Position numbers and translations under genes: made by a program. A DNA stretch of 64,000 nucleotides from Polyangiales bacterium. GTDB taxonomy: Bacteria; Myxococcota_A; Polyangia; Polyangiales; Houyiibacteriaceae. The stretch's first letter is position 1; every line of letters begins with the position of its first letter. Positions 279 to 63,045 of the stretch are shown piece after piece. The stretch covers positions 422-64,421 of the forward strand of contig DATIUW010000106.1 of assembly GCA_035466435.1 (NCBI GenBank). Reading direction: 5' to 3'. The notes beneath the pieces were generated by a model. It saw only the letters and a list, made by a program, of their open reading frames with translations, ran no database searches and was not told the DNA's origin.

Positions 279-698
279 TCAAACGAAGCTGGTCGGAACT
301 TTGCTTGCGCTCACCACGAGCTGCCGAGCGGCTTCGACGAATCGAACGATGGTCGGCAGATGCCCGCGGCCTAGCTTGAGCTTGCCCTCCATCAGTCCCT
401 TGATCGGATCCAGCTTGCCTTCGATGACCTCTTGCCAGCGCGTGTACGAAGCCACGAACGTGAACTCGGCGGCGCCGGAGCGGTCAGCCCCTTCCACGTA
501 GGTGGCGGCACGGCATTCGCCGCCATGGACATCCAGCACGATTCCTGCGTCTCGTGGCAGACCGATGGTCGGGTCTGCAAGCACGATGATCGCCACGGTC
601 CCAAACGTCCAGCACTTGCCGGCGTCTCGGTATGCGGGGTTGTTGTTCAGCGCGGTGCGGTAGGCTTCAGCCCACTCCGCGGAAGGGAATCGATGCAC
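279..698 (-). CDS. SCP2 sterol/lipid-carrier domain protein
   Basis: FPSAEW...LNNN N-terminus and WQEVIEGKLDPIKGLMEGKLKL signature; GTG start with GGAG upstream. Confidence 0.8.
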   Translation of the reverse strand: MHRFPSAEWAEAYRTALNNNPAYRDAGKCWTFGTVAIIVLADPTIGLPRDAGIVLDVHGGECRAATYVEGADRSGAAEFTFVASYTRWQEVIEGKLDPIKGLMEGKLKLGRGHLPTIVRFVEAARQLVVSASKVPTSFV

Positions 699-782
699 AA
701 GCGAACTCCATGCCCGGCCCGGGTTCGCCTCCTTAGCGTGGAGCGTCGGCCCGTGCAACGGCGGCATGCTAAGAGCCTCACC

Positions 783-1541
783 GTGCGTGTGCTTCATTCG
801 GCGCTTCTCGAGCGCCATGGCTTCCGCCATGGCTTTGCAACTCGCGTCGGCGGTGTCAGCGCGGCGCCTTTCGACACGCTCAATCTCGGCTTTCACTTGG
901 GCGATGACGATGACGCAGTCCGGCAAAACCGCCTTCGCTTCGTCAGAAGCCTCGGTCTTTCAATCGAGCAGCTCTTCGAGCAGCGGCAAGTCCATGGAAA
1001 CGAGGTTCGAGAGGTAACGAGCTCGGACGACACCGAAGAGATCCAGAACCGGGAAGGCGATGCGCTCGTCGCGCGCGACGTTGGGATTGCCGTGGCTGCG
1101 CGCACCGCCGACTGTGTTCCCGTGCTGCTCGCCCATCCGCCGAGCGGAGACGTTGCCGCGGTGCATGCAGGATGGCGCGGCGCCGTGGCGGGTGTCGTAG
1201 GCCGGGCTGTCGTGGCGATGAAGCAGCCGCCCGCCGAGCTCGTCGCGGCGATCGGCCCTCACATTCGCGTCGGCGCATTCGAAGTCGGCGAGGAGGTTGC
1301 GCGCGAGCTCGAGCTCGCTTCGAAGCGGCGCCCGGTCGTCGAGCGAGGGGCTGACAAGCCCCACGGCGATCTCGCGGCGCTCATCCGGCTACAACTCCTC
1401 GATCGGGGCCTTCCATCGACTGCCATCGATGATGTGGGCGGCTGCACACACGATGAGCCGGACCTGTTCTTTTCGCATCGGCGTGACCGCGGGAAGACGG
1501 GCCGGCATCTGTCGGTGATCGTCGCCCGCCCGTCGCGCTGA
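783..1541 (+). CDS. pgeF: YfiH/PgeF family purine nucleoside phosphorylase (laccase-like domain)
   Basis: GFATRVGGVS, QVHG, TADCVPV, HAGWRG and FFSHRR motifs; start approximate. Confidence 0.9.
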   Translation: MRVLHSALLERHGFRHGFATRVGGVSAAPFDTLNLGFHLGDDDDAVRQNRLRFVRSLGLSIEQLFEQRQVHGNEVREVTSSDDTEEIQNREGDALVARDVGIAVAARTADCVPVLLAHPPSGDVAAVHAGWRGAVAGVVGRAVVAMKQPPAELVAAIGPHIRVGAFEVGEEVARELELASKRRPVVERGADKPHGDLAALIRLQLLDRGLPSTAIDDVGGCTHDEPDLFFSHRRDRGKTGRHLSVIVARPSR

Positions 1542-1600
1542 AGTCTCGGCGCGGCATTCCAAGGGTCGCTCGGATTGGCGCTTCATGCTATTTCCCGTCC

Positions 1601-2440
1601 GTGGCGGACTTCGCCAAGACCAAAGCCGGAGTCGATGCCTCCGAAAAGAAAACCCTAGGCCAAGGGCTCTTCCGCAAGTGTGACGAGTGCGGCGATGCGG
1701 TGAAGAAGCAGGACTTCGAGCGGAACCTCGAAGTTTGTCCGGCCTGCGGGTTTCACTTCCACTTGCCAGCAGAGCGCTGGATCGAGGTCCTCACCGACCC
1801 AGGGACTTGGGCGGCTCTCGACACCGATTTGGTATCCGCCGATCCAATCGGCTTCGTCGATTCGAAGCCCTATCCGGAACGGATCGAGGCGGCCCGCAGG
1901 TCGACCGGCGTCAACGACGCAATCTTGGCAGGCGCAGCCCGCATCGACGAGCGACCGATTCAGCTCGGTGTGTTCGTGTTTCGCTTCATGGGCGGCTCGA
2001 TGGGCTCGGTCGTCGGTGAGGTCATCACCCGGATGATGGAGCGCGGCGTGGAGCACCAGCACCCCGTGGTCCTGCTCTCGTGCTCGGGCGGGGCGCGTAT
2101 GCAGGAGGGGTCCTTGTCGTTGATGCAGATGGCCAAGACCGTCGCGGCTCGGGCTCGTCTACGTGATGCAGGCGTCCCCTTCATCAGCGTGTTGCTCAAT
2201 CCGACGACCGGTGGCGTGGCCGCGAGCTTCGCGCTGCAAGGAGACGTCAACATCGCCGAGCCGGGGGCACTGATTGGGTTCGCCGGGCCTCGAGTCATCG
2301 AGGACACGATTCGCGAAAAGCTTCCCGATGGATTCCAGCGCGCCGAGTTCCTGTTGGAGCACGGCATGATCGACATGATCTCCACACGTCAGAACATGCG
2401 CCGCAACGTCGCGCGCATGGTCGAGTATCTGGCAGGGTGA
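1601..2440 (+). CDS. accD: acetyl-CoA carboxylase carboxyltransferase beta subunit
   Basis: CxxC...CxxC zinc finger, FMGGSMGS, SGGARMQEG, PTTGGVAAS, GFAGPRVI. Confidence 0.97.
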   Translation: MADFAKTKAGVDASEKKTLGQGLFRKCDECGDAVKKQDFERNLEVCPACGFHFHLPAERWIEVLTDPGTWAALDTDLVSADPIGFVDSKPYPERIEAARRSTGVNDAILAGAARIDERPIQLGVFVFRFMGGSMGSVVGEVITRMMERGVEHQHPVVLLSCSGGARMQEGSLSLMQMAKTVAARARLRDAGVPFISVLLNPTTGGVAASFALQGDVNIAEPGALIGFAGPRVIEDTIREKLPDGFQRAEFLLEHGMIDMISTRQNMRRNVARMVEYLAG

Positions 2441-3708
2441 CGCGGTACCAGGAAGCGCTCCGCTGGCTCTACGGATTGGAGTCCGGCGGTATCAAGCTCG
2501 GGATCGAGCGCACTGCCGAGGCCGCCGAGCTACGCGGCCATCCGGAACGCGCTCTTCGCCACGTGCACGTGGCGGGCACCAATGGAAAAGGCAGCGTCGC
2601 TGCCATGCTCGAATCGACCTTGCGTGCAGCGGGGTACCGGACGGGATTCTTCTCCTCGCCTCACCTGCAGCGTTACGTCGAGCGCATCCGGATCGGCGGG
2701 CGTCCCATCTCCGAGCGTGAGGCCGCCGCGCGTATCGAGGATCTCCGGGCCGATACCCGCCTGCCCCCGCTGTCATTCTTCGAGTTCACGACGCTGCTCG
2801 GGTTCGAGGCGTTTCGGGATGCTCGATGTGACGTCGTCGTGCTCGAGGTCGGGCTCGGAGGCCGCCTCGATTCGACTAACATCGTCTCGCCGGAGGCGTG
2901 TGTCATCACGAGCATCGGTCTCGAGCATCAACGGATTCTCGGCGATACACTCGCCAAGATCGCCCGTGAAAAGGCCGGTGTCATCAAGCCAGGCGTCCCG
3001 TGCGTCGTCGGTGCGCGCGGCAAGAGCGTTCGCCGCGCGATCAGCTCGAAAGCTCGCGCGGTCGGTGCGCCGGTGCGCTGGATCGACAGGGACTTTGGGA
3101 GCGCCCGGCACGAGGGCTCCCTGTCGGTACGGGTAGGAGAGCAAACCTGGGACGACCTCCGCCTCGGGCTACGGGGAGGCTACCAGGCAGACAACGCCGC
3201 GTGCGCGATTGCGACCCTATGCGAGCTCAGGCAACGCGGCTTCTCCGTATCCGACGCAAACATTCGCGAGGGGCTCGAGCGGGTGAAGTGGCCAGGCCGC
3301 CTCGAATCGATCCCTGGCCGGCCGGCCTTCTTGTTTGACGCTGCTCACAACGCAGCAGGCTGTGAGACGCTCGCCTTCCATCTCGAGGAGCTCGCGTTTC
3401 CGGGCCGCGTCGTGCTTCTATTCGGTGCGATGCGAGACAAGGATCACCGCCGCATGCTCGCTTCCTTCGACGGGCTCGTAGAGCGCCGCCTCTATGCTGC
3501 GCCCCCGATTCCGCGCTCCGAGAGGCCGGAGCGCCTCGCAAAAATCCGCGCGGGAACGACCTGCAGAAGCGTCCGCGACGGCGTGGCGCGTGCCAGACGC
3601 GCGGCGGGCCCCGAAGGTCTCGTGGTCGTGGCCGGCTCGATATTTTTGGTGTCGGAGGCCCGCGCGATCGTCAAAAACGTTCGGACCGATCCTCCCATCG
3701 CAATGTGA
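2437..3708 (+). CDS. folC: folylpolyglutamate synthase/dihydrofolate synthase
   Basis: HVAGTNGKGS, EVGLGGRLDSTN, WPGRLE, DAAHN; GTGA overlap with accD. Confidence 0.95.
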   Translation: MTRYQEALRWLYGLESGGIKLGIERTAEAAELRGHPERALRHVHVAGTNGKGSVAAMLESTLRAAGYRTGFFSSPHLQRYVERIRIGGRPISEREAAARIEDLRADTRLPPLSFFEFTTLLGFEAFRDARCDVVVLEVGLGGRLDSTNIVSPEACVITSIGLEHQRILGDTLAKIAREKAGVIKPGVPCVVGARGKSVRRAISSKARAVGAPVRWIDRDFGSARHEGSLSVRVGEQTWDDLRLGLRGGYQADNAACAIATLCELRQRGFSVSDANIREGLERVKWPGRLESIPGRPAFLFDAAHNAAGCETLAFHLEELAFPGRVVLLFGAMRDKDHRRMLASFDGLVERRLYAAPPIPRSERPERLAKIRAGTTCRSVRDGVARARRAAGPEGLVVVAGSIFLVSEARAIVKNVRTDPPIAM

Positions 3709-50485: not shown

Positions 50486-51772
50486 ATGAATGGCGAACCG
50501 GAGAATCCACACCGCAGGGCGATTCGAGCCGGATTGGCGGCCGTGGCCCTGCTCATGTCGACCAATGTACAGGCCGGAGCGCAAGAACCGACTCGAGAGC
50601 CTCCTCCCGAAGCTTCCGCAAAGGAAACCATCGAGGAGTTGGTGACGGCGCCTGGTGGCGTTCCAACTGAATCCATCGATCCCGACCTGGCCGTGGAGAT
50701 GCTGAAATCGAGCACCGCGAAGCTGGAAGAGCAGCTGAGGAACGACCTCGCCGGGGGCACGTACGTCATCGATTTCGACGAGGGCTTCGAATGGGTGCGG
50801 CTCGTCTCGGGAGAGTGGGTCAAAGGCGAGATCCAACGCATGCGAGACGATGTCCTCGAGTTCGACAGCGACAAGCTCTCCATGCTCAGCATCGACTTCG
50901 CGGACGTGACTCATCTGTACTCGCCACGCGTGGAAACCTATTTGTTCTACGATCGAGTCAGCGCCACCGGAAAGGGGATCATCATCCAAGACGAGGTCAT
51001 TATCGAGACCGAGGAAGGTGTCAGAATCTTCCCGCGGGATGAGCTGCAGTCGATCATTCCCGGAGGAGATCGCGAACGAGACTGGTGGTCGATGAAGCTT
51101 CGGTTCGGGGCCACGTTCAACAGGGGCAACACCGATCAGCTCACCTATGACATCAATTTCAATACGCGCCGGGAGGACGATCTCACGCTTCTCGATTTGA
51201 AGTACAATGCGTCCTTCGGTCGGACGGGCGGCGAACAGAACGTCAACCGGCATCTAGGAGAGCTGAACTTGAAGGTTTTCGTCTCCAGGCGTTGGTTCGT
51301 CACGCCCGCATTTGGGCAGCTCTTGAACGACCGTTTCCAGAACATTCGGTTCCGAGCCACGCCTGCGGCCGGCGCTGGCATTCACATCATCGATTCGTCC
51401 AAGGTCAAGTGGGATTTCCAAACGGGTCTCGGCTATCAGTTTCTCCGATTTCGAGATGAAAGCGTCACGAACGGAGACAATCCGCAGAACGACGTGTTCA
51501 TTCCGCTCTACACCTACGCGGATTTCGAGATCACGGGCGACATCGATCTCACGCTGAGCTGGAGGACCAACCTCGTGCTGACGACCATCGGCAACACCAA
51601 CCACACCGGCAAAGCCGATCTATCCATCGAGGTCAATAGCATCCTCAACTTCGACATTGCGTTTCTGTATCTCCGGACCGAGGATCCAGGCCCTCCATCG
51701 GATCCCGCAGACCCGCCTCTCGAGCAGAACGACTACCAGCTCATCATCGGCGTCAGCGTCGAGTTGGGGTAG
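50486..51772 (+). CDS. DUF481-like outer-membrane beta-barrel protein
   Basis: Signal peptide; L.SGE.VKG N-terminal domain; RGNTD; amphipathic strands; C-terminal IGVSVELG. Confidence 0.7.
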   Translation: MNGEPENPHRRAIRAGLAAVALLMSTNVQAGAQEPTREPPPEASAKETIEELVTAPGGVPTESIDPDLAVEMLKSSTAKLEEQLRNDLAGGTYVIDFDEGFEWVRLVSGEWVKGEIQRMRDDVLEFDSDKLSMLSIDFADVTHLYSPRVETYLFYDRVSATGKGIIIQDEVIIETEEGVRIFPRDELQSIIPGGDRERDWWSMKLRFGATFNRGNTDQLTYDINFNTRREDDLTLLDLKYNASFGRTGGEQNVNRHLGELNLKVFVSRRWFVTPAFGQLLNDRFQNIRFRATPAAGAGIHIIDSSKVKWDFQTGLGYQFLRFRDESVTNGDNPQNDVFIPLYTYADFEITGDIDLTLSWRTNLVLTTIGNTNHTGKADLSIEVNSILNFDIAFLYLRTEDPGPPSDPADPPLEQNDYQLIIGVSVELG

Positions 51773-52079
51773 CGCTACGTCCGCCGCGTGAGCCGGCCAA
51801 GCGCAGTAGCTCCCCGACGGAGTGATCGGCTTCGATGGGATGGCGGAGAGGAAAGCGCTTGTCGATATGGTAGTGCGTGCGACGGCCCTGGCGTCGCCGC
51901 GAGATGGCCCCTGCTTCTTCGAGCTCGCCCAGGATCCGCTGCACGGCTCGCTCCGTGATGCCAACCGCTTGTGCGATCTCGCGGACTCGAATGTCCGGGT
52001 CGCGTGCGATGCACAGCAGTATATGCCCGTGATTACTCAGGAAAGTCCATGCTGGAGCCGTCTGGTTCGGGATGGCCAT
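51753..52079 (-). CDS. winged-HTH transcriptional regulator (WTFLxNH family, MarR/ArsR-like), copy 1
   Basis: WTFLSNHGHILLCI, VGITERAVQRI, GRRTHY, PLRHPIE. Confidence 0.9.
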   Translation of the reverse strand: MAIPNQTAPAWTFLSNHGHILLCIARDPDIRVREIAQAVGITERAVQRILGELEEAGAISRRRQGRRTHYHIDKRFPLRHPIEADHSVGELLRLAGSRGGRSATPTRR

Positions 52080-52097
52080 CGTACTGCCGTCTCTATT

Positions 52098-52161
52098 TAC
52101 ATAAAACACAAATCACGTATTGACAAGCAGGAAAAAAATAACATGCTTCAAATATCATGAA
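52098..52161. promoter_or_regulatory. operator array overlapping a sigma70 promoter
   Basis: TACATAA-N8-TCACGTA (52098-52119); CAnn half-sites at 52100, 52114, 52128, 52142 and 52156; TTGACA at 52120-52125. Confidence 0.7.
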
Positions 52162-53842
52162 TCCGGCGACTCATAGCGTTTTGTCGTCCCGGCCGTCGCC
52201 CTTGCGGCGAACGCGACAGCTTCTAGACCTCGATAGACAAGACATCGCTGTCATCATCATCTACGGCGTTGCGTTGGGTCTGCTGTCGCTCGCGGTTCCC
52301 ATTGCGGTTCAGTCGCTCGTGAATACGGTGGCCTTCGGCTCTCTGATTCAGCCTCTGGTCGTGCTGACGATACTTCTTGCCGTCGCTTTGATCGGCGCAG
52401 CGGTGCTTCGGGCTCTCCAAGTACGAGTCGCGGAAATGCTGCAGAGGCGTTTATTCGTCCGAATGGTGATCGAGATCGGTGATCGCCTGCCTCGCATGAG
52501 CGCGCGGGCGCTTCGGGCGGCCAATGGTCCCGAGCTCTTGAACCGATTCTTCGACGTATTCACCACGCAGAAGAGCTTGGCGCATCTGCTACTTGGCGGA
52601 ATCGACGCGCTGTTGATCGCGCTGGTCGGGATGGCGGTCTTGGCGTTCTACCATCCCTGGCTCCTGGCGTTCGACATCGTCTTGATTCTGGGCGCGTTGA
52701 TCGTGCTCTTTCCCCTGGGGCGAGGCGGAACCCGGACCAGCGTGGCGGAGTCGAAATCAAAATACGCCGTTGCATGGTGGCTCGAAGAAATGGCACGGCA
52801 CCCGCTGTCTCTAAAGCAGGCAGGGGGCGGAGATTTCGCACAGGAGCGCGTCCAAGCGCTTGCTCACTCGTATCTCGACAATCGGGATCGACACTTCAAA
52901 ATCGTCTTCCGTCAGCTCATCGGCGCACTGACCTTCGAGGTGATTGCAAGCGTGGCGCTGCTAGCCCTCGGTGGATTGTTGGTGATCGAGCGTCAGCTCT
53001 CGCTCGGGCAGCTCGTCGCTGCCGAGCTCATCGTGACGGCCGTGGTGGCTTCGATTGCAAAGCTCAGCGGGAAAGTGGAGATCTTCTACGACTTGGTTGC
53101 TGCCGTCGACAAGCTCGGAGATATTCTCGATCTTCCCCTCGAGCGTGAGGGTGGGGAGAGCCCACCCTCCAGCGCGGAGCCTCGTGGGCATCTACACATT
53201 CGAGATTTGGAGATCGATCCGGTGCTACACGACGAAATGCCGCCGATTTCTCTCGATCTCCGACCTGGGCAGTGGCTTGCGATCACCGGTGCGCCCGAGC
53301 GTGCCACCGCACATTTGGTGGATGCGATCTTCGGATTGAATCCCGCCCGTGCGGGTCTCGTGGAGATCGACGGACACGACACGCGCGATCTTTCGCTTCG
53401 CAACCTTCGATCTCGAATTGCGCTCGTCCGCAATGTCGAAGTCTTGCCGGGCACCATCCTCGATAACCTCCGTTCGGCGAATGCCGAGCTCAGTGCCGAC
53501 GATGCATGGGCTGTTCTTCACGACGTGGGTCTAGAAGAGAGCATCAAGTCCTTGCCCGATGGTCTCAGCACCGAGCTAGTCGTGGACGGCGAGCCGTTGA
53601 CACGTTCGCAGACGATTGCGCTGACAATTGCGAGAGCTCTCGCGGGCAGCCCGTCGATTCTCGTTCTCGACCGGACGCTCGACTGGCTTGGTCCGAAGGA
53701 GCGGCGGGCCACGCTCGACGCCTTGCTTTCTCGAAGTGAAGTCTCGGTCTTGCTCATCACCGACGAATCGGAGCTCGTTTCCCGCGCCGATGTGCAATTG
53801 GACCTATCCGAGCTGTTCAAACCGCATGGAGAAGCAGCATGA
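52157..53842 (+). CDS. T1SS-type ABC exporter (TMD+NBD) with degenerate ATPase motifs
   Basis: LAVPIAVQSLVN, ELLNRFFD, LSLGQLVAAEL in the TMD; NBD fold with Walker A as GAPERATA, signature LTRSQ and Walker B LVLDR. Confidence 0.85.
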   Translation: MNPATHSVLSSRPSPLRRTRQLLDLDRQDIAVIIIYGVALGLLSLAVPIAVQSLVNTVAFGSLIQPLVVLTILLAVALIGAAVLRALQVRVAEMLQRRLFVRMVIEIGDRLPRMSARALRAANGPELLNRFFDVFTTQKSLAHLLLGGIDALLIALVGMAVLAFYHPWLLAFDIVLILGALIVLFPLGRGGTRTSVAESKSKYAVAWWLEEMARHPLSLKQAGGGDFAQERVQALAHSYLDNRDRHFKIVFRQLIGALTFEVIASVALLALGGLLVIERQLSLGQLVAAELIVTAVVASIAKLSGKVEIFYDLVAAVDKLGDILDLPLEREGGESPPSSAEPRGHLHIRDLEIDPVLHDEMPPISLDLRPGQWLAITGAPERATAHLVDAIFGLNPARAGLVEIDGHDTRDLSLRNLRSRIALVRNVEVLPGTILDNLRSANAELSADDAWAVLHDVGLEESIKSLPDGLSTELVVDGEPLTRSQTIALTIARALAGSPSILVLDRTLDWLGPKERRATLDALLSRSEVSVLLITDESELVSRADVQLDLSELFKPHGEAA

Positions 53843-55176
53843 AGCATTCCTCGATGGACAACACGCCCTGGACTGGTTTCGTGCGTGATCAGCTTCCCCC
53901 CGGGTTAGAGGTTGGCGCGCCTCGACGGCCGACCACCGTGGCAAAGATGCTCGTCGCCATGTTCCTGATGTTCGCGCTGATCGCACTGTTGGCTCCCTGG
54001 ACCCAAAACATCCGCGGGCGGGGCCGCGTGGTCGCGTACTCTCCCGATCAGCGGGTGCAAACTATTGAAGCGACCATTTCCGGCACCATCGAAAAATGGT
54101 TCGTGCAGGAAGGCTCCCAGGTCAAGAAGGGCGATCCAATCGTGAAGCTGACAGACAATGATCCCAGGATTCTCGATCGGTTGGATGAACAGCGTGGGGC
54201 CATCGAGCTGCAGCGCATTGCAATGTTGCAACGCGTCGAAACGCTGACCTCTCGGGTCGAGTCGCTGCGGCGCTCGCAACGCGCCGAGATCAACTCTGCT
54301 GAGGCAAACGTGGCCATCGCCCACCAGGACGTAGCGGCAGCCCAGCAGGACCTCACCGCGGCACGCGCGGAGCTCGAGACGAACGAGCTCAACTTGCGCC
54401 GGCAAAGCGATCTTCGCAAAGACGGATTGGCCTCGCAGCGCGAGCTCGAGCTCGCGGAGCTCGCGGAGCGGCAGAGCAGGGCAAAGGTGGCGTCAGCCGA
54501 AGCGAAGTTTCAGGCATCTCAAAACAAGCTTTATCAGAGTCGCGCGGCCCTTCGTCGCGTCATCGCGTCCGCCGAGGCGGAGATCGAAGGCGCCGAGGCA
54601 GCTCTGAATAGCGCCCAAACCGACTCTGCGTCCGTAAGCGGCGGCCTCGCTCGCTTGGAGGTCGACATCGCGCGACAAGAAGCGCAGATCATCGCCGCCC
54701 CGATCGACGGAACGATACAAAAGGTCGTCGGCAGGCTCGGCGGCGAGCAGGTGTCACGCGGTGAGGTGCTGGCGGTGCTGGTGCCGCAGACCAACGATCG
54801 AGCGGCCGAGCTCTATGTCGACGGAAACGATGCGGTTCTGATCAAACCTGGAACCAAGGTTCGGCTTCAGTTCGAGGGATGGCCCGCGGTGCAATTTGCA
54901 GGCTGGCCGTCCGTGGCGGTGGGTACCTTCGGCGGCCGAGTTGCGTTCGTCGACGCCACCGACGATGGACGAGGCAACTTCCGCGTCTTCATCGTGCCCG
55001 ATCGAGAGGACGACCCGTGGCCGGCCGCGAGCTATCTTCGCCAGGGCGGCCTCGCGAAGGGGTGGATCCTTCTGAATCAGGTGCGCCTCGGGTTCGAGGT
55101 CTGGCGACAATTCAATGGCTTTCCGCCGACGACCGATCCGCCGCCCATGGCTTCTCCGGACGAGGGAGTCCAATGA
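53839..55176 (+). CDS. HlyD-family membrane fusion protein
   Basis: TM followed by PWTQNIRGRG, lipoyl motifs (WFVQEGSQVKKGD, APIDG), long coiled coil, VRLQFEGWPAVQF. Confidence 0.92.
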   Translation: MKHSSMDNTPWTGFVRDQLPPGLEVGAPRRPTTVAKMLVAMFLMFALIALLAPWTQNIRGRGRVVAYSPDQRVQTIEATISGTIEKWFVQEGSQVKKGDPIVKLTDNDPRILDRLDEQRGAIELQRIAMLQRVETLTSRVESLRRSQRAEINSAEANVAIAHQDVAAAQQDLTAARAELETNELNLRRQSDLRKDGLASQRELELAELAERQSRAKVASAEAKFQASQNKLYQSRAALRRVIASAEAEIEGAEAALNSAQTDSASVSGGLARLEVDIARQEAQIIAAPIDGTIQKVVGRLGGEQVSRGEVLAVLVPQTNDRAAELYVDGNDAVLIKPGTKVRLQFEGWPAVQFAGWPSVAVGTFGGRVAFVDATDDGRGNFRVFIVPDREDDPWPAASYLRQGGLAKGWILLNQVRLGFEVWRQFNGFPPTTDPPPMASPDEGVQ

Positions 55177-56612
55177 TCCGAAAAGCGTCGCTCTGCCTAG
55201 GCTTCTTGTTGGGGGGCGTTTTCCACTCGATCGCACTCGCGAGCGAAGAGCGCATGGCGCCCCTGCGCTTCGACGAAGTGCTGCGGTCGGTGACGGCCCA
55301 TGATCCCCGCATCCGCAAGGCCGTAGAGGGGCTGCGTCGCGCCGAAAGCAACACCATGCAAGCGCGCGGTGCGTTCGATCCGCGCGTCGAAGGAGACGCC
55401 GCGCTGCGGACCGGCGCCTACTACGACTTGAGGCGCGCTGACGTCGAGCTTCGCCAAGCCACGACGCTCTGGGGGTCGGAGATCTACGCCGGTTATCGAG
55501 TGGGCTTGGCTCGGAATGATCGCTGGCCGACCTACTTGGAAGATCAAACACTTTCGGGCGGCGAAGTGCGTGCAGGCATCGACATGCCGATCTGGCGTGG
55601 GGGTCCCATCGACGAGCCTCGCGCGAAACGCGCCCGCGCACTGGCGCTCGAAGAGGCCGCGCGCCACGACCTCTCGGGCATGGAGCTCAACCTCGAGCTG
55701 GCCGCCGCCGGCGCCTACTGGAAGTGGGTGAGCACGGGCCAGAAGCTGGAGGTCACGAGGGGCCTTCTTCGCCTCGCCGAAGAGCGTGATGGCCAGCTTC
55801 GACGGCGGTTGGCGGCAGGCTCGATCGCGGAGTTCGACGTCACGGACAACGAGCGCATCTTGTTCGAGCGCCGGGCATTGCTCGTCGCTGCCGAACGCGC
55901 CTTCGAGCAGGCTGCGTTCGAGCTGTCGTTGTTTCTACGGGATTCCCAAGGGCAATCCGTGGTCCCGGGATCGAGTCGACTGCCCGCCGATCAGGAGCTC
56001 CCGTCAGGCCAGGAGCCCGTCGAGGCACTAGTCATGGAACGCGTTCTCATGTGTCATCCCGATCTCCGACAGGTCCGTGCTCAGCTCGATGCCGCAGAGG
56101 TCGACGTGGCGCTCACGAAGAATCAGCTCGCGCCCGACATCAAAGCCCTTTTCCAGTATTCCCGCGACTTGGGTGAGCTCACGGGCACCGATCTGGACTT
56201 CACGCTCCCAGGAAACGTGTTCAAGGTAGGGGTCCAGCTCTCGATGCCGCTTCCGTTTCGGAGCGAGCGCGGCCGGGCGGGCATCGCCCGCGCAGAGGTC
56301 GCACAGACCGAAGCCGAGGCTCGCTTTCTGGAAGATCAGTTGACCGCCCGGGTTCGCGACGCTGCCTCGGCGGTGCGAGCCGCTCAAGAACGGGTCGAGC
56401 TCACCCAGGAGATCGTCGAAACCGCTGTGGAGCTTGCCGAGGGCGAGCGGCGCCGGTTCGACGTAGGGGCCAGCAACCTCATCTTCGTCAACCTTCGAGA
56501 GCAACAAGCCGCCATGGCCAAGATGCAGCTCATCGAAGCGATTGCGATCGTTCAGATCGAGCGCACCCGATGGGATACGACGACCCGCGTCGAGTGCGGC
56601 CGCGGCGGGTAG
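55173..56612 (+). CDS. TolC-family outer-membrane channel
   Basis: Signal peptide; ARGAFDP, AYWKW, ERRRFDVGASNLIFVNLRE. Confidence 0.9.
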   Translation: MIRKASLCLGFLLGGVFHSIALASEERMAPLRFDEVLRSVTAHDPRIRKAVEGLRRAESNTMQARGAFDPRVEGDAALRTGAYYDLRRADVELRQATTLWGSEIYAGYRVGLARNDRWPTYLEDQTLSGGEVRAGIDMPIWRGGPIDEPRAKRARALALEEAARHDLSGMELNLELAAAGAYWKWVSTGQKLEVTRGLLRLAEERDGQLRRRLAAGSIAEFDVTDNERILFERRALLVAAERAFEQAAFELSLFLRDSQGQSVVPGSSRLPADQELPSGQEPVEALVMERVLMCHPDLRQVRAQLDAAEVDVALTKNQLAPDIKALFQYSRDLGELTGTDLDFTLPGNVFKVGVQLSMPLPFRSERGRAGIARAEVAQTEAEARFLEDQLTARVRDAASAVRAAQERVELTQEIVETAVELAEGERRRFDVGASNLIFVNLREQQAAMAKMQLIEAIAIVQIERTRWDTTTRVECGRGG

Positions 56613-56627
56613 AAGGGTCGCCGGCGC

Positions 56628-57809
56628 TCAACCGTGGCAGGTCATTCGCTCGCCGCCCACCGAGCGACGAGATCCGGTCGATTCGAGACGCGCAAGCAGC
56701 TCCTCGCTTGCGCGCAGTGCGAGTAAGGGATCCTCGTCGAGAACCAAGACGTGACCCATTTTTCGGCCGGGGCGGGGCTGAGCCTTGCCGTAGAGATGGA
56801 GCCGTGCCTCGGGGCGGGCGAAGACCAGGGTCCAATCGGGCTCGCCATCCTGCCAGAGATCTCCGAGCAGGTTGACCATTGCGGCCGGGCGGAGAAGTGA
56901 AGGATCACCGAGGGGAAGATCGAACACCGCGCGAACGTGTTGTTCGAACTGAGAGGTGACACAAGCCCCGAACGTGTAGTGGCCGCTGTTGTGCGGGCGG
57001 GGCGCGATCTCGTTTACGAGCACGGCCGTCCCGCCGACCAGAAACATCTCCACCGCCATCATTCCCACGTGGTCGAGGGCGTTGGCGATTCGGGCTGCGA
57101 TCTCGAATGCTTCCGTTTCTACCGTACTGGTAATCGGGGCAGGCGCGACCGTGGTGTGAAGCACGTGATTGCGATGAACGTTCCGAGCGACGGGATAGAA
57201 GCGCATTTCGCCCCTCGGATTTCGTGCGAGAAGCACAGAGATTTCAGCGTCGAACTCGACGAATTCTTCGAGCATGGCAGGCATTGCTCCGATCGCCTCC
57301 CACGAAGCTTCGAGCTGGTTTGCGGCGGCGATCACGGCCTGACCCTTCCCGTCGTACCCCGAGTGCCGGCTTTTCAGCACGCAGGGGAAACCGAGGCTGG
57401 CTGCCGCTTCGCGGAGCTCGGTCAAGTGGCTCACCGGGAGGCAACGTGGTTGCGGCGCCTCGATGCTTTCGAGGAAACGCCGTTGCGCTCGACGATCCTG
57501 GATGGTTTGCAAAACCGAAGAAGAGGGGCGAACGGGACCGATGCGCTCGAGATCGGCCAGCATGGATGCCGGAACGTGCTCGGTGTCCAGCGTGATGACG
57601 TCGACTCGACGAGCGAGCTGTTTGGCCGATTCGACGTGGTCGAGCTGGCCGGGGACCCACTCATCAGCCAGAGGGACCGCGGGATCGTCTCGATCGGGGC
57701 TCAATACACAGACTCGGTAACCCATGCGGCGGGCCTCGAGAATCATCATCCGTGCGAGCTGGCCCCCCCCGATGATGCCGAGCGTTGCACCTGGGAGCAG
57801 TGGGCTCAT
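56628..57809 (-). CDS. purK: N5-carboxyaminoimidazole ribonucleotide synthase
   Basis: [43 protein letters not shown]. Confidence 0.97.
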
Positions 57810-58312
57810 AGCTTCGTCTCCAGGACTTTCGCCGTCTGCGCGGATCGATAGGCCTGGAGCCGTCCGCGTAGCTCTGCGTCGCCCCGTGCCAGGATGGCTG
57901 CGGCCAGCAGTCCGGCATTCGCGGCGCCGGCATCGCCGATGGCCAAGGTGCCCACCGGGATTCCCTTCGGCATCTGCACGATCGACAAGAGGGAATCCAT
58001 CCCGCTGAGAGCGCTCGTACGAACGGGGACGCCGAGGACGGGAAGCAGAGTCTTGGCAGCGGCCATGCCGGGTAGATGGGCTGCGCCACCAGCGCCCGCG
58101 ATCAGGACCTCGATGCCCCGGGCCTCTGCCTGCTCACAGAAGCTGAACAGTAGGTCGGGCGTTCGATGGGCGGATACGACCTTCGCCTCGTACGGGATCC
58201 CGAGCTCGCTCAGCACACGGGCCGCGTGCTCCATCGTGGACCAATCGCTCTGGCTGCCCATGATGATGGCAACGCGGGCCGGAGGGGGATCAGGGCTTGT
58301 TGGTGCTCCCAT
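57806..58312 (-). CDS. purE: N5-CAIR mutase
   Basis: [39 protein letters not shown]. Confidence 0.98.
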
Positions 58313-58419
58313 GCGACAATATACTCACGAACCCGGCTTCGCGGGTCCTATATTGCCGGAGGCCTTCGAGCGCAAGCCGTTCAGGCGAAAAAAGCTCCCA
58401 ATTGCCGACAGTTAGCGAT

Positions 58420-58449
58420 TTGACTCGTGAAATCAGCGTCATGTAAGGT
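58420..58449 (+). promoter_or_regulatory. promoter of regulator copy 2 with the operator between -35 and -10
   Basis: TTGACT-18 nt-TAAGGT, containing CTCGTGA-N8-TCATGTA (58424-58445). Confidence 0.65.
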
Positions 58450-58493
58450 CGGCACGCCTCGATTGCAGCACGTGAGCTGAGGAACGACGAAAC

Positions 58494-58820
58494 ATGGCAA
58501 AAAATAGCGCGAAGGCTGCGGACCAGGATTCCTCGTGGACTTTCCTCACCAATCATTCTCACGTGCTCTTGTGCCTTGCAGAGGACCCCGAAGCGCGAAT
58601 GCGCGATGTTGCCACACGGGTGGGGATTACCGAGCGCGCGGTTCAGCGCATCGTGTCCGAGCTCGAGGCCGCAGGCTACCTCGTGCGGCACAGAGAAGGG
58701 CGCCGAAATCGATACGAGGTCGAGGGGAACCTTCCATTGAGACACCCCGTCGAGGGTCACCGGAATCTCGAAGCCCTCATCAGGCTCATCCTGGGCTCCG
58801 AGGCCAAGCCGTCCCGCTGA
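58494..58820 (+). CDS. winged-HTH transcriptional regulator (WTFLxNH family), copy 2
   Basis: WTFLTNHSHVLLCL, VGITERAVQRI, GRRNRY, PLRHPVE. Confidence 0.9.
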   Translation: MAKNSAKAADQDSSWTFLTNHSHVLLCLAEDPEARMRDVATRVGITERAVQRIVSELEAAGYLVRHREGRRNRYEVEGNLPLRHPVEGHRNLEALIRLILGSEAKPSR

Positions 58821-58830
58821 CGGCGCGCGC

Positions 58831-59913
58831 TCAGCCTTCGTCCGATTCGGAGTCGTTCTTCTCTTCCCGGCGGCGTGTGAGCTCCGACTCGAGCTCGGTT
58901 TTGAGCGCTTCGAGACGCTTGATGCGAGCCTCCGCTTCCTCCTCGTCGATCTCGCCCGCATCGTTCTTCTTCAGCTTCGCGATCTCTTCCACGACGCTTT
59001 CGAGCTTCTGCTCCAGCTTGGCCTCGCTCTCGGCCAGCTCGGCCTTGTCGAACATCCGTTCTTCGGGTCGAGATTCGTTCGCCGACGTCTTTTCTCTGCG
59101 CGCGCGCTGGACCGCGGGAATGAAAACGCGGTTCTCCGGGAGCTGGCGTTGATTCATGAAAGTGGGGGACACGATCTCGATGCCCGCCTCGTGCAGGCTG
59201 TCGAGCGCGCTCTTACGGAGCTCGGACTCCGCGCTGAGCAGGTATTTCACCTCCTCGAGGAAGCCTGCCACCTGATAGGTGATCGAGAAATCTCCCAGCT
59301 CCAACACGAAAACGAATGGATCCGCGAGACCCGCACGACGGGCAGCTTCGAGCAAGCATTTTTCTACCTCGCCGCGGGGCACGTCGTATCCCAGCGAAAC
59401 CGTGGCGGAGATGAACGTGCCCGAGGAGCGGACCACGGTGACGGGGTTTGAAACGAGGTAGAGGTTCGGTAGGGTCGTCAAGTCGCGCCGCTCGTTCTGG
59501 ATCTCGGTTCGCAGCAACCCGAGCTCGGACACGCGTCCGCGGTGTCCTTCGACGACGATGAAGTCCCCAGGCTTGAAGTTTCGAATGGAGCGCAGCATCA
59601 GGCCGGCCATCGCGTTGCCTAGCAGGGTGGTCGATGACAGGGCGACTGCTGCGGTCACCAAAATCCCCAAGAGGCTCAGAAGCTGCCCACGAGCGGCGTC
59701 GGCAATCGGAAGCTCGAGGATCACGAGGACTACGACGACACCCGCCAATGCTCCAATGAGAAGTTGTTGCGAGATGCGGCTCCCGGACGTCGGAGGCTTT
59801 CGCTTCATCAGAAGCTGATACGCAGCAGTGACGATCAAGATCCCGATCAGCAGTATGACCAGCGCGGGAAGCCACTCGCGGAGGGAGGCTGGAATCGATT
59901 TCAGGTAGTCCAT
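58831..59913 (-). CDS. MscS-family mechanosensitive channel
   Basis: Three TMs; LGNAMAGLML, FKPGDFI, GRVSELGLLRT, LPN, VSLGYDV; acidic coiled-coil tail. Confidence 0.9.
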   Translation of the reverse strand: MDYLKSIPASLREWLPALVILLIGILIVTAAYQLLMKRKPPTSGSRISQQLLIGALAGVVVVLVILELPIADAARGQLLSLLGILVTAAVALSSTTLLGNAMAGLMLRSIRNFKPGDFIVVEGHRGRVSELGLLRTEIQNERRDLTTLPNLYLVSNPVTVVRSSGTFISATVSLGYDVPRGEVEKCLLEAARRAGLADPFVFVLELGDFSITYQVAGFLEEVKYLLSAESELRKSALDSLHEAGIEIVSPTFMNQRQLPENRVFIPAVQRARREKTSANESRPEERMFDKAELAESEAKLEQKLESVVEEIAKLKKNDAGEIDEEEAEARIKRLEALKTELESELTRRREEKNDSESDEG

Positions 59914-59914
59914 T

Positions 59915-60886
59915 TCAACTCTTCGAAAGCACCAAGAGGGCCATGTAGCCGACGAAGCCGGCTAGAAGCACGAATCCCTCGGCTCGGGTAACCCTCATCC
60001 CCGTCTTCATCAAGGGAAACAGCAAGAACGAAGCGCCCAGCATCCACCACATGTCTCGGCCGAGGATTTCTGCCGGAACGGTCAAGGGATGAATGAGACT
60101 GGTCGCACCGGCGATGCCCAACACGTTGAATATGTTGGATCCCACCACATTGCCGACAGCGACGTCGTCTTGGCCCCTGCGAGCCGCCACGAGTGACGTG
60201 GCGAGCTCCGGTGTGCTCGTGCCGGCAGAGATGATGGTGAGACCAATCACCGTATCCGAGACGCCAAGCGCGCTCGCCACGGCAATCGCGCCGCTGACGA
60301 GCGCCTTCGAGCCTGCGGCCAGCAATGCCACGCCGGCAACGACGGCTCCGATGTTGAAGGCCGCGGCGGCCTTGCCCGTTCGTCCGAAAGAAGCGGTCGT
60401 GAGCTGCTCGAACTCCTGTTGCTCGAGAGGCGTCACGCTCTTTCGACCCAGCCAAACCGCATACGCGGTGAATGCGACCATGGCAGTGAGCAAGAAGGCG
60501 CCCTCGATGCGATCGAGCAGTGAATCGCGTGTCAGAAGGTAGAGCTGAAAGGCAGCCAGCATCATCACCGGCCATTCGAGGCGAACCGTGTTGCCCAAGA
60601 TGCGAAGCGGTCGAATCAGGGCTGCAAGCCCGAGAATGGCGCCGATGTTGAAGATGTTCGACCCGACCACGTTGGCAATCGCGATTCCGGGGCTACCCTC
60701 GACGGCCGCTTGCAACGACACGACGAGCTCGGGCATCGACGTACCCGCCGCCACGATGGTGAGCCCGATGACCGGCGGCGAAATCCGAGCGAGCAGCGCA
60801 ATGCCGCTCGCGCCCCGCACGAGCGCCTCGCCGCCACCAAATAGGAGAACGAGGCCACCGACGATCAGCGCCCATTGCAAAATCAT
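59915..60886 (-). CDS. Ca2+/Na+ antiporter (CaCA, YrbG-like)
   Basis: Two alpha repeats: [14 protein letters not shown]...NVVGSNIFN and [14 protein letters not shown]...[10 protein letters not shown]. Confidence 0.95.
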
Positions 60887-60952
60887 GGCTCAGTCACCCT
60901 CGAATCGAGCAGCTTCAATTGTGGCCGATGGCAAGCTACCATACTTGGTCCC

Positions 60953-61534
60953 ATGAGGTGTGGGCACACTTGGACGGCACGGATCTTGGCAGATGCGCGG
61001 GCCAAGACACGCAGACTTGGTCTAGCCGCGTTCTCGAGCGTTCTCATCGCCGGTTTCTCATCGGCTCCGGTCGCATCGGCAAAGGGCTTCGAAGGAGGGC
61101 AGTCGATCTACGGATGGACGGAGTATGCGCATCTCTATCCGAAGGGGCTTCGCTTGAAGGCGAAGCTCGACACCGGCGCGAATACCTCGTCGCTCAATGC
61201 GCTCAACATGGAGAAGTTCGAGCGCGATGGCGAGCCTTGGATCAAGTTCGAGGTCATCGACCCCTCGGGCGACGAGCGGATCCGATTCGAGCGTCCGATT
61301 TCGCGCGAAGTCCACATCAAAGACCTCGATGGAGGATCGGACAGCAGGCCCGTAGTGCGGATGGAGTTGTGCATCGGACGCACGTACCGGGAAGTAGAGT
61401 TCAGCTTGGTGGATCGAAGCCACTTCGACTACCAGGTTTTGGTGGGCCGAAACTTCCTCGCAGATGCGGTGCTCGTCGATGCGGGGAAGAGGTTTCTGGC
61501 GGGCAAGAAATGCAAGGCGGCTAGAAAGCAGTGA
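60953..61534 (+). CDS. secreted retropepsin-like aspartic protease (RimB/RloA-like)
   Basis: Signal peptide; GWTE, KAKLDTGANTSSL, RPVV, EFSLVDRSHFDYQVLVGRNFL; start approximate. Confidence 0.85.
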   Translation: MRCGHTWTARILADARAKTRRLGLAAFSSVLIAGFSSAPVASAKGFEGGQSIYGWTEYAHLYPKGLRLKAKLDTGANTSSLNALNMEKFERDGEPWIKFEVIDPSGDERIRFERPISREVHIKDLDGGSDSRPVVRMELCIGRTYREVEFSLVDRSHFDYQVLVGRNFLADAVLVDAGKRFLAGKKCKAARKQ

Positions 61535-63045
61535 GCGGCACGGGAGTCAAGGTGCTCGTCGTCGCTTTGATGGCCGCCGGATTGGGACTGGCTGCCTACA
61601 AGCACTGGATCTTGGGGTACCCTGCCGTGCCGGATACGGCGATTCCGAGTTGGTTGGTCGAAGCTCGACTTCGTGTCGTTGCGAACGACGGTCCCGTCAA
61701 GGTGCGATTCAAGATACCGAACGATCCCTACGGGTACGGCATCCTCGAAGAAGACTTCGTGTCCGACGACTTCGGTCTGACCACGCACGCCGGCACGCCG
61801 CGTATCGCAGAGTGGACCGTGCGGCGCGCAAGCGGCGAGCAGACGCTTTATTATCGTATGCTGGTCTACCGAAAGCCGTTCACCTTCGACGAGGAGCCCC
61901 CTCCGGGACCGGCCCCTGCACCGGAATGGGAAGAGCCTTATCACACGGCCGCGGTGCAACTCGTAGATTCCGTCCGTGCGCAATCGGCGGGCCCGGTGTC
62001 GCTTGCCTCCATTCTGATGAGTCGATTGATACAAGCTTCTCCCGACGATTCCGCCTCGCTATTACTTCGGCGAATGCCCGGCGAGCCAGACGTCGTTCGG
62101 ACGGCCGTCAACCTCCTCGCCTATGCAGGCATTTCGGCCCGCAAAGTCACCGCTCTCGAGATCAGCGACGGCCGCACGGGCGTGCGGCCCGAGCCGTGGT
62201 TGGAGGTGTATGCAGAAGGCCAGTGGACCGGCATCGATCCCTCGACCGGCGAAGCGCGCTGGCCGGAGGAGCTCTTGCTTTGGACCCGAGAGGGAGGGCG
62301 TTTGCTGACTGTCGAGGGAGCCGATGAGCCGGAGCTCGAGTTCTCGGTGGCCCGTAACCAGCGGGATGCGGTCATCCTGGCTCAACGACGCGCACAGCGC
62401 ATGGATAGCCCGCTCAGTGGAGTCTCGCTCTTCGACCTGCCTTTGGGCACCCAAAACGTTTACAAGATCTTGCTGCTCGTTCCGCTGGGCGCGCTCTTGG
62501 TCATCGTGTTTCGCAACATCATCGGAGTACAGACCATCGGCATCTTCATGCCGATCCTGATCGCGCTGGCATTTCGAGAGACGGGGCTGACCGTCGGCTT
62601 GCTCTTGTTGATCGTCATCGTAGCAACGGGGCTGGCCATTCGCTTCTACCTCGACCGACTTCGCCTGCTCTTGGTTCCCCGTCTTTCAGCCGTCGTCACG
62701 GTCGTGGTGGGCCTGATGGTGGCCGCAAGCCTGTTGGCCGACGAGTGGCAGCTCGATCGCGGTCTCGCAGTGGCCCTCTTTCCCATCGTCATCATGGCGA
62801 TGACGATCGAGCACATGTCCGTGGCGTGGGAGGAGCGCGGTCCGGCCGTCGCGTTGCAAGAGGGCTTCGGGAGCCTCGTGGTGGCGGTGGCCGGCTACTT
62901 CGTCATGATCAATCCGATCATCGGGCACGTCATGTTCACGTTCCCCGAGCTCTTGCTGGTGGTTCTGGCGTTGTCGATCGCTCTGGGGCGCTACACCGGA
63001 TACCGTATTACGGAGCTATGGCGATTTCGATCGCTTCGAGGGTGA
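61531..63045 (+). CDS. inactive transglutaminase fused to a 7TM domain
   Basis: PWLEVY...W.GIDP transglutaminase remnant with no catalytic Cys; LPL..QNVYKILLLVPLGAL, GIFMPILIALAF, GRYTGYRITELWRF. Confidence 0.88.
   Translation: MSGTGVKVLVVALMAAGLGLAAYKHWILGYPAVPDTAIPSWLVEARLRVVANDGPVKVRFKIPNDPYGYGILEEDFVSDDFGLTTHAGTPRIAEWTVRRASGEQTLYYRMLVYRKPFTFDEEPPPGPAPAPEWEEPYHTAAVQLVDSVRAQSAGPVSLASILMSRLIQASPDDSASLLLRRMPGEPDVVRTAVNLLAYAGISARKVTALEISDGRTGVRPEPWLEVYAEGQWTGIDPSTGEARWPEELLLWTREGGRLLTVEGADEPELEFSVARNQRDAVILAQRRAQRMDSPLSGVSLFDLPLGTQNVYKILLLVPLGALLVIVFRNIIGVQTIGIFMPILIALAFRETGLTVGLLLLIVIVATGLAIRFYLDRLRLLLVPRLSAVVTVVVGLMVAASLLADEWQLDRGLAVALFPIVIMAMTIEHMSVAWEERGPAVALQEGFGSLVVAVAGYFVMINPIIGHVMFTFPELLLVVLALSIALGRYTGYRITELWRFRSLRG

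Follow-up and report, generated by a model that had tools for sequence, protein, structure and literature searches.

Introduction

Heterotrophic bacteria need bicarbonate for purines, fatty acids and pyrimidines, BioD uses CO2, and cells without carbonic anhydrase (CA) or importers fail at ambient CO2. The carbon-uptake regulators listed for cyanobacteria are of the LysR, AbrB and CRP types (PMC13249358), while DAB pumps also occur in heterotrophs, and LysR and CRP regulators were named in a screen of an autotroph (10.1101/476713; papers given here by accession or DOI are cited from excerpts). PurK consumes bicarbonate, and purK mutants depend on high CO2 (PMC10880623). Isocitrate dehydrogenase (IDH) is among the main sources of CO2, Bacillus subtilis starved of bicarbonate is rescued when its CO2 output rises, and the 2026 preprint on that species describes the regulation of such genes as remaining to be explored (10.64898/2026.09.08.750065). 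Here we analyse a 64,000-nucleotide stretch of a Polyangiales genome (assembly GCA_035466435.1, contig DATIUW010000106.1, positions 422 to 64,421; hereafter the window, in whose own numbering positions are given), which encodes two small winged-helix regulators, R1, divergent from an ABC-HlyD-TolC exporter operon, and R2, divergent from purE-purK.

Comparison with related loci suggests that these regulators and their operator form a genuine system that is conserved, seems not to have been described, and is strongly tied to inorganic carbon by the comparative evidence; in the full-text literature, covered mostly without subscription papers and in main texts only, we found no description of the family. 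On balance, R1 and R2 are probably homodimeric repressors that bind arrays of a 12-2-12 inverted repeat and are released by inorganic-carbon shortage through a His/Glu site between the subunits, a proposal that draws on comparative sequence analysis and structure prediction.

Results

A predicted operator is shared by R1, R2 and their relatives

R1 (108 residues; 51753–52079, minus strand) was assigned to a family marked by a WTFLxNH motif from its open reading frame, its motifs and a divergent arrangement that recurs in congeners. It is 52% identical over 98 residues to R2 (108 residues; 58494–58820, plus strand), and both proteins carry VGITERAVQRI, NHxH-x-LLC and PLRHP. An earlier note on this DNA had described both regulators, these motifs, the exporter operon, purE-purK and a palindrome with an 8-nt spacer in each intergenic region, all of which were confirmed; the palindromes lie at 52098–52119 and 58424–58445 and are both conserved in congeners. 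The recognition helix is identical in R1 and R2, as that note remarked, but it matches the family consensus, which 38 of 80 relatives carry exactly, so that a shared operator is predicted for the two proteins while no recent duplication is implied. A recent duplication was indeed rejected, since the two proteins are placed in separate clades of a quick and poorly resolved tree (12 of 109 branches strongly supported; four rows dropped as duplicate or damaged).

Motif finding de novo in the 300 bp upstream of 79 relatives, taken from the best 80 of 601 confirmed matches to R2 and therefore not an even sample, returned a 12-2-12 inverted repeat, AATACRYGAAAT-nn-ATTTCRYGTATT, in about 72% of the regions (one locus, L032, was excluded from training as close kin, and one other congener was kept). 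Its log-likelihood was 370, against 73–87 for shuffles, and 54 of the 79 regions scored at least 12 bits. The motif recovers both palindromes of the window, and the shared operator proposed earlier emerges independently of the window itself. When 4.48 Mb were scanned for TACRTGA-N8-TCAYGTA, the first palindrome was the only site with at most one mismatch, and the second was one of 10 sites with two mismatches. The palindromic sites are correct, but the element is better described as a 12-bp unit every 14 bp; the unit is itself near-palindromic and repeats at −14, 0, +14 and +28 across relatives.

Between R1 and the exporter, five such units start at 52096, 52110, 52124, 52138 and 52152, forming an array (52096–52163) with 12-2-12 scores of 17.7, 12.2 and 16.3 bits. 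This array contains the first palindrome and spans both a TTGACA box (52120–52125) and the ABC start codon, and arrays are conserved in congeners. The gap between R2 and purE holds two operators. One, at 58422–58447 (14.8 bits), fills the spacer of the predicted R2 promoter TTGACT-N18-TAAGGT (58420–58449, plus strand) and overlaps both boxes; TTGACT-N18-TAnnnT is present in the window and in 10 of 11 congeners. The other, which would be the control site for purE, lies separately by the purE start (58322–58347) and was overlooked by the earlier note, whose site in this gap is the one over the R2 promoter. A sigma-70 promoter scan called no promoter in either intergenic region. The overlap of operators with promoter boxes would imply repression.

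The palindromes might instead serve autoregulation only, leaving purEK and the exporter uncontrolled, and the position of the 58422 site over R2's own promoter, beside a weak purE site, would suit this. We regard it as scarcely credible, because the separate purE operator scores 22–28 bits in 10 of 11 congeners, the array crosses the ABC promoter and start, and operators track the target operon even where the regulator gene lies elsewhere in the locus. Outside the training windows, 21 sites of at least 14 bits were found in 1.05 Mb, 14 of them no more than 450 bp upstream of dabB, sbtA, icd, bioD, terC, mrp or the ABC gene, compared with a single site in 293 kb of control DNA. The predicted operator therefore appears to go with the target operon rather than solely with the regulator gene, and we consider this out-of-sample placement its strongest test.

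Carbon genes recur beside the regulator family

At 90% clustering, at least 7,995 of the 8,000 entries scored are relatives of R2, and at 50% identity 2,063 clusters match with E up to 1e-10. Gene neighbourhoods were compared within 8 kb of the regulator at 80 loci from more than 10 phyla. SbtA and NADP-dependent IDH each occur at 15 of these loci, the exporter at 11, DabA at 10, purE-purK at 8, SbtB and beta-CA at 7 each, SulP and HtpX at 5 each, TerC at 4, BioD, Mrp and DUF6671 at 3 each, and CNNM at 2. SbtA, DabA or beta-CA is present at 30 loci, a number that rises to 47 when SulP, purK or IDH is added and to 55 with the exporter. None of 18 arbitrary 16-kb stretches (16 from Actinomycetota genomes and two from one planctomycete) contains any of these carbon genes, and about 1.9% of the present genome lies within 8 kb of one. 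The link of the family to inorganic carbon or pH, which the earlier note had put forward, is thus borne out by this comparison (30/80 against 0/18).

The neighbours comprise importers (SbtA/B, DabAB, SulP), beta-CA, PurK and BioD as users of CO2 or bicarbonate, and the CO2 producers IDH, in two unrelated types, and phosphoenolpyruvate (PEP) carboxykinase; at one locus the IDH is monomeric and so belongs to an unrelated enzyme class, and another locus combines PEP carboxykinase with a CA. Import, hydration, release and thrifty use of CO2 would together make one coherent answer to carbon shortage. Carbon neighbours are spread across the tree of regulators (SbtA, 12 changes in 17 rows; DabA, 8 in 11; branches weakly supported). 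Six annotated plasmid loci, out of 43 matches, include two with sbtAB, one with icd and one with a CA gene, and two others that have TerC and no carbon gene.

Further neighbours are Mrp, TerC/Alx, HtpX, Ca/Na antiporters, P-type ATPases, CNNM, CorA and NhaR-like LysR proteins. These bring in the main rival explanation, that an alkaline cytoplasmic pH is the signal, sensed through deprotonation of interface histidines, and that carbon genes belong to the regulon because dissolved CO2 is depleted at high pH. NhaR, Alx and Mrp have roles in alkaline or sodium stress. The Mrp, TerC, HtpX and CNNM genes counted above fit this explanation, as do the Ca/Na antiporter and P-type ATPase neighbours, the NhaR-like LysR genes near the exporter (13 of 80 exporter loci) and beside R2 in two congeners, and a candidate site that is rich in histidine, with no conserved lysine for a carbamate. 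Carbon importers, CA and CO2-substrate enzymes, however, outnumber pH-homeostasis genes (47 of 80 loci), and NdhR, an established repressor that responds to carbon limitation, likewise has a Na+/H+ antiporter gene among its targets (PMC13249358). We therefore hold pH sensing to be unlikely, if still to be taken seriously; inorganic carbon and pH are chemically coupled and thus inseparable by genomics.

A second alternative is that carbon status is reported indirectly by a central metabolite such as 2-oxoglutarate or isocitrate, as in NdhR, which uses 2-oxoglutarate and 2-phosphoglycolate (PMC13249358). IDH is as common as SbtA among the neighbours and follows purK in six of seven congeners, in keeping with this idea, but a 108-residue protein without an effector domain, whose conserved residues outside the DNA-binding part are His, Glu and Cys and look more like a metal or proton site, makes such sensing improbable.

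Two side observations concern these neighbourhoods. Conjugative plasmids of Arthrobacter sp. U41 (L112 and L114), whose record names Lake Untersee, an alkaline, carbon-poor water, carry six and one regulator copies with sbtAB, TerC/Alx, YqhA and DUF6671. DUF6671 (PF20376) lies beside the regulator, icd, sbtA or dabA at six loci (L038, L078, L107, L114, L166 and L207), has its own operator in L114, and is a candidate low-CO2 protein.

Fold and candidate sensing site

The R2 model has a winged-helix fold plus a C-terminal helix (helices 20–30, 36–43, 47–60 and 92–100, wing 63–76; pLDDT 89). Its structure matches, including CzrA (Z 9.1, rmsd 4.6, 78 residues aligned) and SmtB (Z 9.0, rmsd 4.2, 78 aligned), are tied with other winged helix-turn-helix (wHTH) families, and in the fold search AspA, ArsR and MarR proteins, all about 20% identical, match equally well. 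No curated NCBIfam model scored the R1/R2 family above its cut-off. PF12802 (MarR_2) matched above gathering over the HTH only; the protein has 108 residues, where a MarR fold has about 140, and TM scores to MarR targets are 0.35–0.41. Profile searches found neither LysR domain (HTH_1, substrate-binding) in R1 or R2. PHROGs and ESM Atlas returned generic HTH names only, and a PDB sequence search with R2 gave nothing under E 0.06.

R2 is predicted to form a homodimer, with a score of 0.80 compared with 0.00 for the best of three controls, on a scale whose mark is reached by 20 of 30 solved pairs and one of 23 single chains; runs agreed in at least 87% of contacts, with pLDDT of at least 86. The predicted interface comprises residues 15–27 and 82–99, that is, the family signature motifs WTFLTNH and LRHP. 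At or beside it lie the conserved residues H21, H23, C27, R83, H84, E87 and H89, with His23 near residue 86 of the partner, His21 near 15–17 and Thr16 near His84. H21, H23, H84 and E87 are intact in 78 of 79 GTDB loci. CO2 carbamylation of a lysine was rejected as a sensing mechanism, no lysine being conserved in the family.

One actinobacterial clade (L214, L218, L219 and L221–L223; support 100) has lost His23, His84 and Glu87 and has an altered upstream repeat (ACTAGCA...TTCTAG-like); it is a natural negative control.

Such residues also raise the question of an SmtB/ArsR-like sensor of Mn, Zn, Ca or Ni that controls metal export, with carbon genes hitch-hiking. The 12-2-12 operator is close to SmtB-type sites such as AATACCTGAACA-GA-TGTTCAAGTATT (PMC8790569), the best profile match in the PDB is SmtB (E 5.7e-5), H84-x2-E87 resembles half of the alpha5 motif, and TerC, CNNM and CorA are among the neighbours. 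On the model for this family, NF033788 (cut-off 55 bits), R1 and R2 score only 34.3 and 23.0 bits, although 62 of 104 family members match at E 0.001 (best E 2.6e-9), and hhalign against a bona fide ArsR protein gives a probability of 2%. Neither the alpha3N (Cx1-2C) nor the alpha5 (DxHx10Hx2E) metal site is present, these being the two motifs compared out of those two and 13 other classes in PMC8790569; there is one Cys (C27), and of the alpha5 motif there is only Hx2E, at 84–87. Metallothionein, heavy-metal ATPase and CDF genes are absent among the annotated recurring neighbours, and operators stand directly before dabB, sbtA, icd and bioD. A metal-export regulator is, in our judgement, a distinctly poor prospect.

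The exporter has degenerate ATPase motifs

The exporter genes form one operon with overlapping starts and stops in the gene order of type I secretion: an ABC half-transporter (52157–53842), an HlyD-type periplasmic adaptor (53839–55176) whose start overlaps the ABC stop, and a TolC-family outer-membrane channel (55173–56612, likely start ATG 55173, in a frame open from 54879), all on the plus strand. All four ATPase motifs of the ABC protein (Walker A Lys, LSGGQ, Walker B Glu and switch His) are degenerate: Walker A reads ITGAPERATA (53282–53311) and has no GK[ST], the signature is LTRSQ, Walker B is LVLDRT (53660–53677) without Glu, and there is no switch His. The membrane domain is well conserved. 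In 78 full-length ABC homologs, Walker A GK[ST] is kept in 47 and Walker B DE in 16, both in 14. The assembly holds no second ABC copy above 150 bits, the operon has neither a C39 domain nor a cargo gene, and the three open reading frames with at least three GGxGxD repeats lie on other contigs; the best NCBIfam matches of the exporter are below cut-off. These motifs suggest that the ABC protein likely works without ATP hydrolysis or with an additional partner.

HlyD alignment found 80 exporter loci in metagenomes, many on short contigs and four from close kin. The regulator lies upstream in 14 and an NhaR-like LysR gene nearby in 13 (two of four LysR proteins tested pass the NhaR cut-off); two have purK and one IDH. 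Among four annotated plasmid exporter loci, one has a dabA-ABC-HlyD-TolC operon with bioD and a CA gene nearby.

The two divergons in congeners and the surroundings of the locus

The R1-ABC divergon was found in all 20 congeners with a match (24 searched) and the R2-purEK divergon in 11. In the window, purE (58312–57806, minus strand; N5-CAIR mutase) and purK (57809–56628, minus strand; N5-CAIR synthetase, using ATP and bicarbonate) score above the cut-offs of TIGR01162 and of NF004679 and TIGR01161, respectively. In seven congeners with a wider read, purK is followed by icd in six and by a beta-CA gene in one, and SulP follows the exporter in two; an NhaR-like LysR gene lies beside R2 in the two congeners mentioned above. 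The present genome itself encodes sbtA, dabBA, two CA genes, sulP and icd. Its sbtA is divergent from an Mrp-like antiporter cluster (C186:13136–20017) and lacks the operator, so another regulator may control it.

DNA runs from three different studies cover the entire stretch, and the differences listed contain none in the operator sites: one contig has 0 differences over 51500–55939, and another has six over 57931–59000, each of them listed and lying outside operators. One RNA run (X19) yielded short, divergent pieces only, and gives no evidence on expression. The closest named relative among the searches is the Myxococcales SG8_38 genome (R2 89% identical).

A third paralog, R3, is encoded on contig C332 of this genome (1921–2310, minus strand), with the helix GITERGVF and His89 replaced. 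It is flanked by genes for a secreted hypothetical protein and a Gly/Thr-rich lipoprotein (632–3036), and the best operator of the genome (19.9 bits, C332 position 3011) lies upstream of this unit; the pairing recurs, with a 24-bit site, in congener G005 (L250). Contig C224 begins with a site near-identical to the operator of the R3 unit, and an 18.8-bit operator at C111:5951 stands directly upstream of an 883-residue lipoprotein-like open reading frame, a possible remote target.

Around the two divergons, a DUF481 outer-membrane protein gene (50486–51772, plus strand) converges on R1, a position kept in four congeners, and mscS and a Ca/Na antiporter gene (58831–60886, minus strand) converge on R2. 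Ca/Na antiporters also occur near the regulator in L091 and in the Arthrobacter plasmid L112, where a 16-bit site lies upstream. A 10.8-bit site at 59898, over the mscS start, was treated as chance, as it was not seen in the closest congener. Beyond lies an rloA-rloB-like pair (60875–63045, plus strand), encoding a retropepsin-like protease and an inactive transglutaminase membrane protein, both below NCBIfam cut-offs.

Discussion

In the repression mechanism that we propose, R1 and R2 dimers would occupy 12-2-12 operators that cover both their own promoters and the divergent ones. Ample carbon would keep the repressor bound, and scarcity of inorganic carbon would release it, switching on purE-purK and the ABC-HlyD-TolC channel. 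The intersubunit His-x-His and His-x2-Glu site, probably metal-bound and beside Arg83, may read bicarbonate/CO2 or a close proxy, and the two divergons would act here as small local regulons, likely with cross-binding. A bolder version, which we advance tentatively and with more doubt than trust, holds that the family includes a direct one-component bicarbonate/CO2 sensor in which a His3-Glu metal site between the subunits, with Arg beside it, takes bicarbonate as co-repressor, and which controls a 'CO2-shortage kit' of heterotrophs in more than 10 phyla, comprising import, hydration, CO2 release by IDH, PurK/BioD and an ATP-independent tripartite channel for carbon or proton retention.

Several findings weigh against carbon-responsive repression by R1 and R2. 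No operator precedes the sbtA, dabB, icd, sulP or two CA genes of this genome (best below 4 bits), and sites of at least 15 bits number 11 genome-wide, against 3–6 in shuffles. A genome-wide regulon here was accordingly rejected, htpX also lacking an operator and a dabA piece at a contig end being excluded. The purE operator of this genome is weak, at 8.2 bits with a decayed right half. The two divergons are adjacent in only three (G002, G006 and G010) of the 11 congeners that have both; the single bracketed module of the earlier note does not hold as a conserved unit, and the layout in the window owes something to local chance. Carbon genes are truly associated with the exporter itself, but to a modest degree: DabA, CA or SulP occurs at only seven of the 80 exporter loci, and three of the four annotated plasmid exporter loci have no carbon gene. 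The dimer prediction may pass because of likeness to solved wHTH dimers. The Mrp, TerC/Alx, HtpX, Ca/Na antiporter, P-type ATPase, CNNM, CorA and NhaR-like LysR neighbours fit alkaline or metal stress equally, and the 80-locus set consists of the best R2 matches and is not an even sample. Among 101 Actinomycetota genomes drawn evenly, 23 were positive; of the 22 loci compared, only three had SbtA, DabA or CA, and one each had an adjacent icd, Mrp or TerC gene, while 15 lacked the full His/Glu set and several had an altered repeat. A link to carbon would therefore apply to a subfamily only, one that includes R1 and R2.

A candidate regulator family with its operator, candidate sensing residues and culturable hosts (Deinococcus psychrotolerans, Cryobacterium, Arthrobacter U41, Myxococcus vastator and Sphingobium among the named loci) makes it possible to test directly how the response to CO2 shortage is controlled. 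The question matters for understanding the many environmental bacteria that grow only at high CO2 or high density. The family could yield a 108-residue biosensor of CO2 or pH, and it links carbon-shortage stress to an uncharacterised exporter whose ATPase looks inactive.

Among known systems, type I secretion (HlyBD, PrtDE, NHLP exporters) shares the three-gene order and domain content of the exporter, which differs in having no C39 domain or cargo gene in its operon and in the loss of ATPase motifs in the genus and in most homologs. In other lineages, NhaR-like LysR proteins take the same place beside the exporter, and several loci have one next to the regulator, but their fold is unrelated and in the known case they are activators. 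AspA of pNOB8 and MarR-family wHTH proteins are the top Foldseek matches (E 2.6e-4 to 1e-3, about 22–25% identity), yet only a core of 60–65 residues aligns, in tied rows that indicate no function, and MarR's long dimerisation helices are absent from R1 and R2.

SmtB/ArsR proteins (SmtB, AzuR, CzrA) resemble R1 and R2 as small winged-helix homodimers, predicted as such here, with weak profile and fold likeness, and use a 12-2-12 inverted repeat of similar sequence over the promoter (PMC8790569), the operator here being predicted from sequence. The core is YGAA/TTCR in the R1/R2 family and TGAA/TTCA in SmtB/ArsR, identity is about 10–22%, the dimer is predicted to form through WTFLT and LRHP, and the targets are carbon rather than metal-export genes. 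With the profile cut-off and the metal-site signatures both failing, we do not file R1 and R2 as members.

The closest functional likeness is to NdhR/CcmR and CmpR, which keep sbtA-type importers and a Na+/H+ antiporter gene repressed while carbon is plentiful, lift that repression in shortage, and show autoregulation and a divergent layout (PMC13249358). Those proteins are LysR tetramers of about 300 residues per chain, with an effector domain, an ATAG-N8-CTAT motif and phototroph hosts, whereas the R1/R2 family comprises 108-residue wHTH proteins, predicted to be dimers, which have a 12-2-12 operator, live mostly in heterotrophs and count PurK, BioD and IDH among their targets. By analogy, R1 and R2 likely work as NdhR does.

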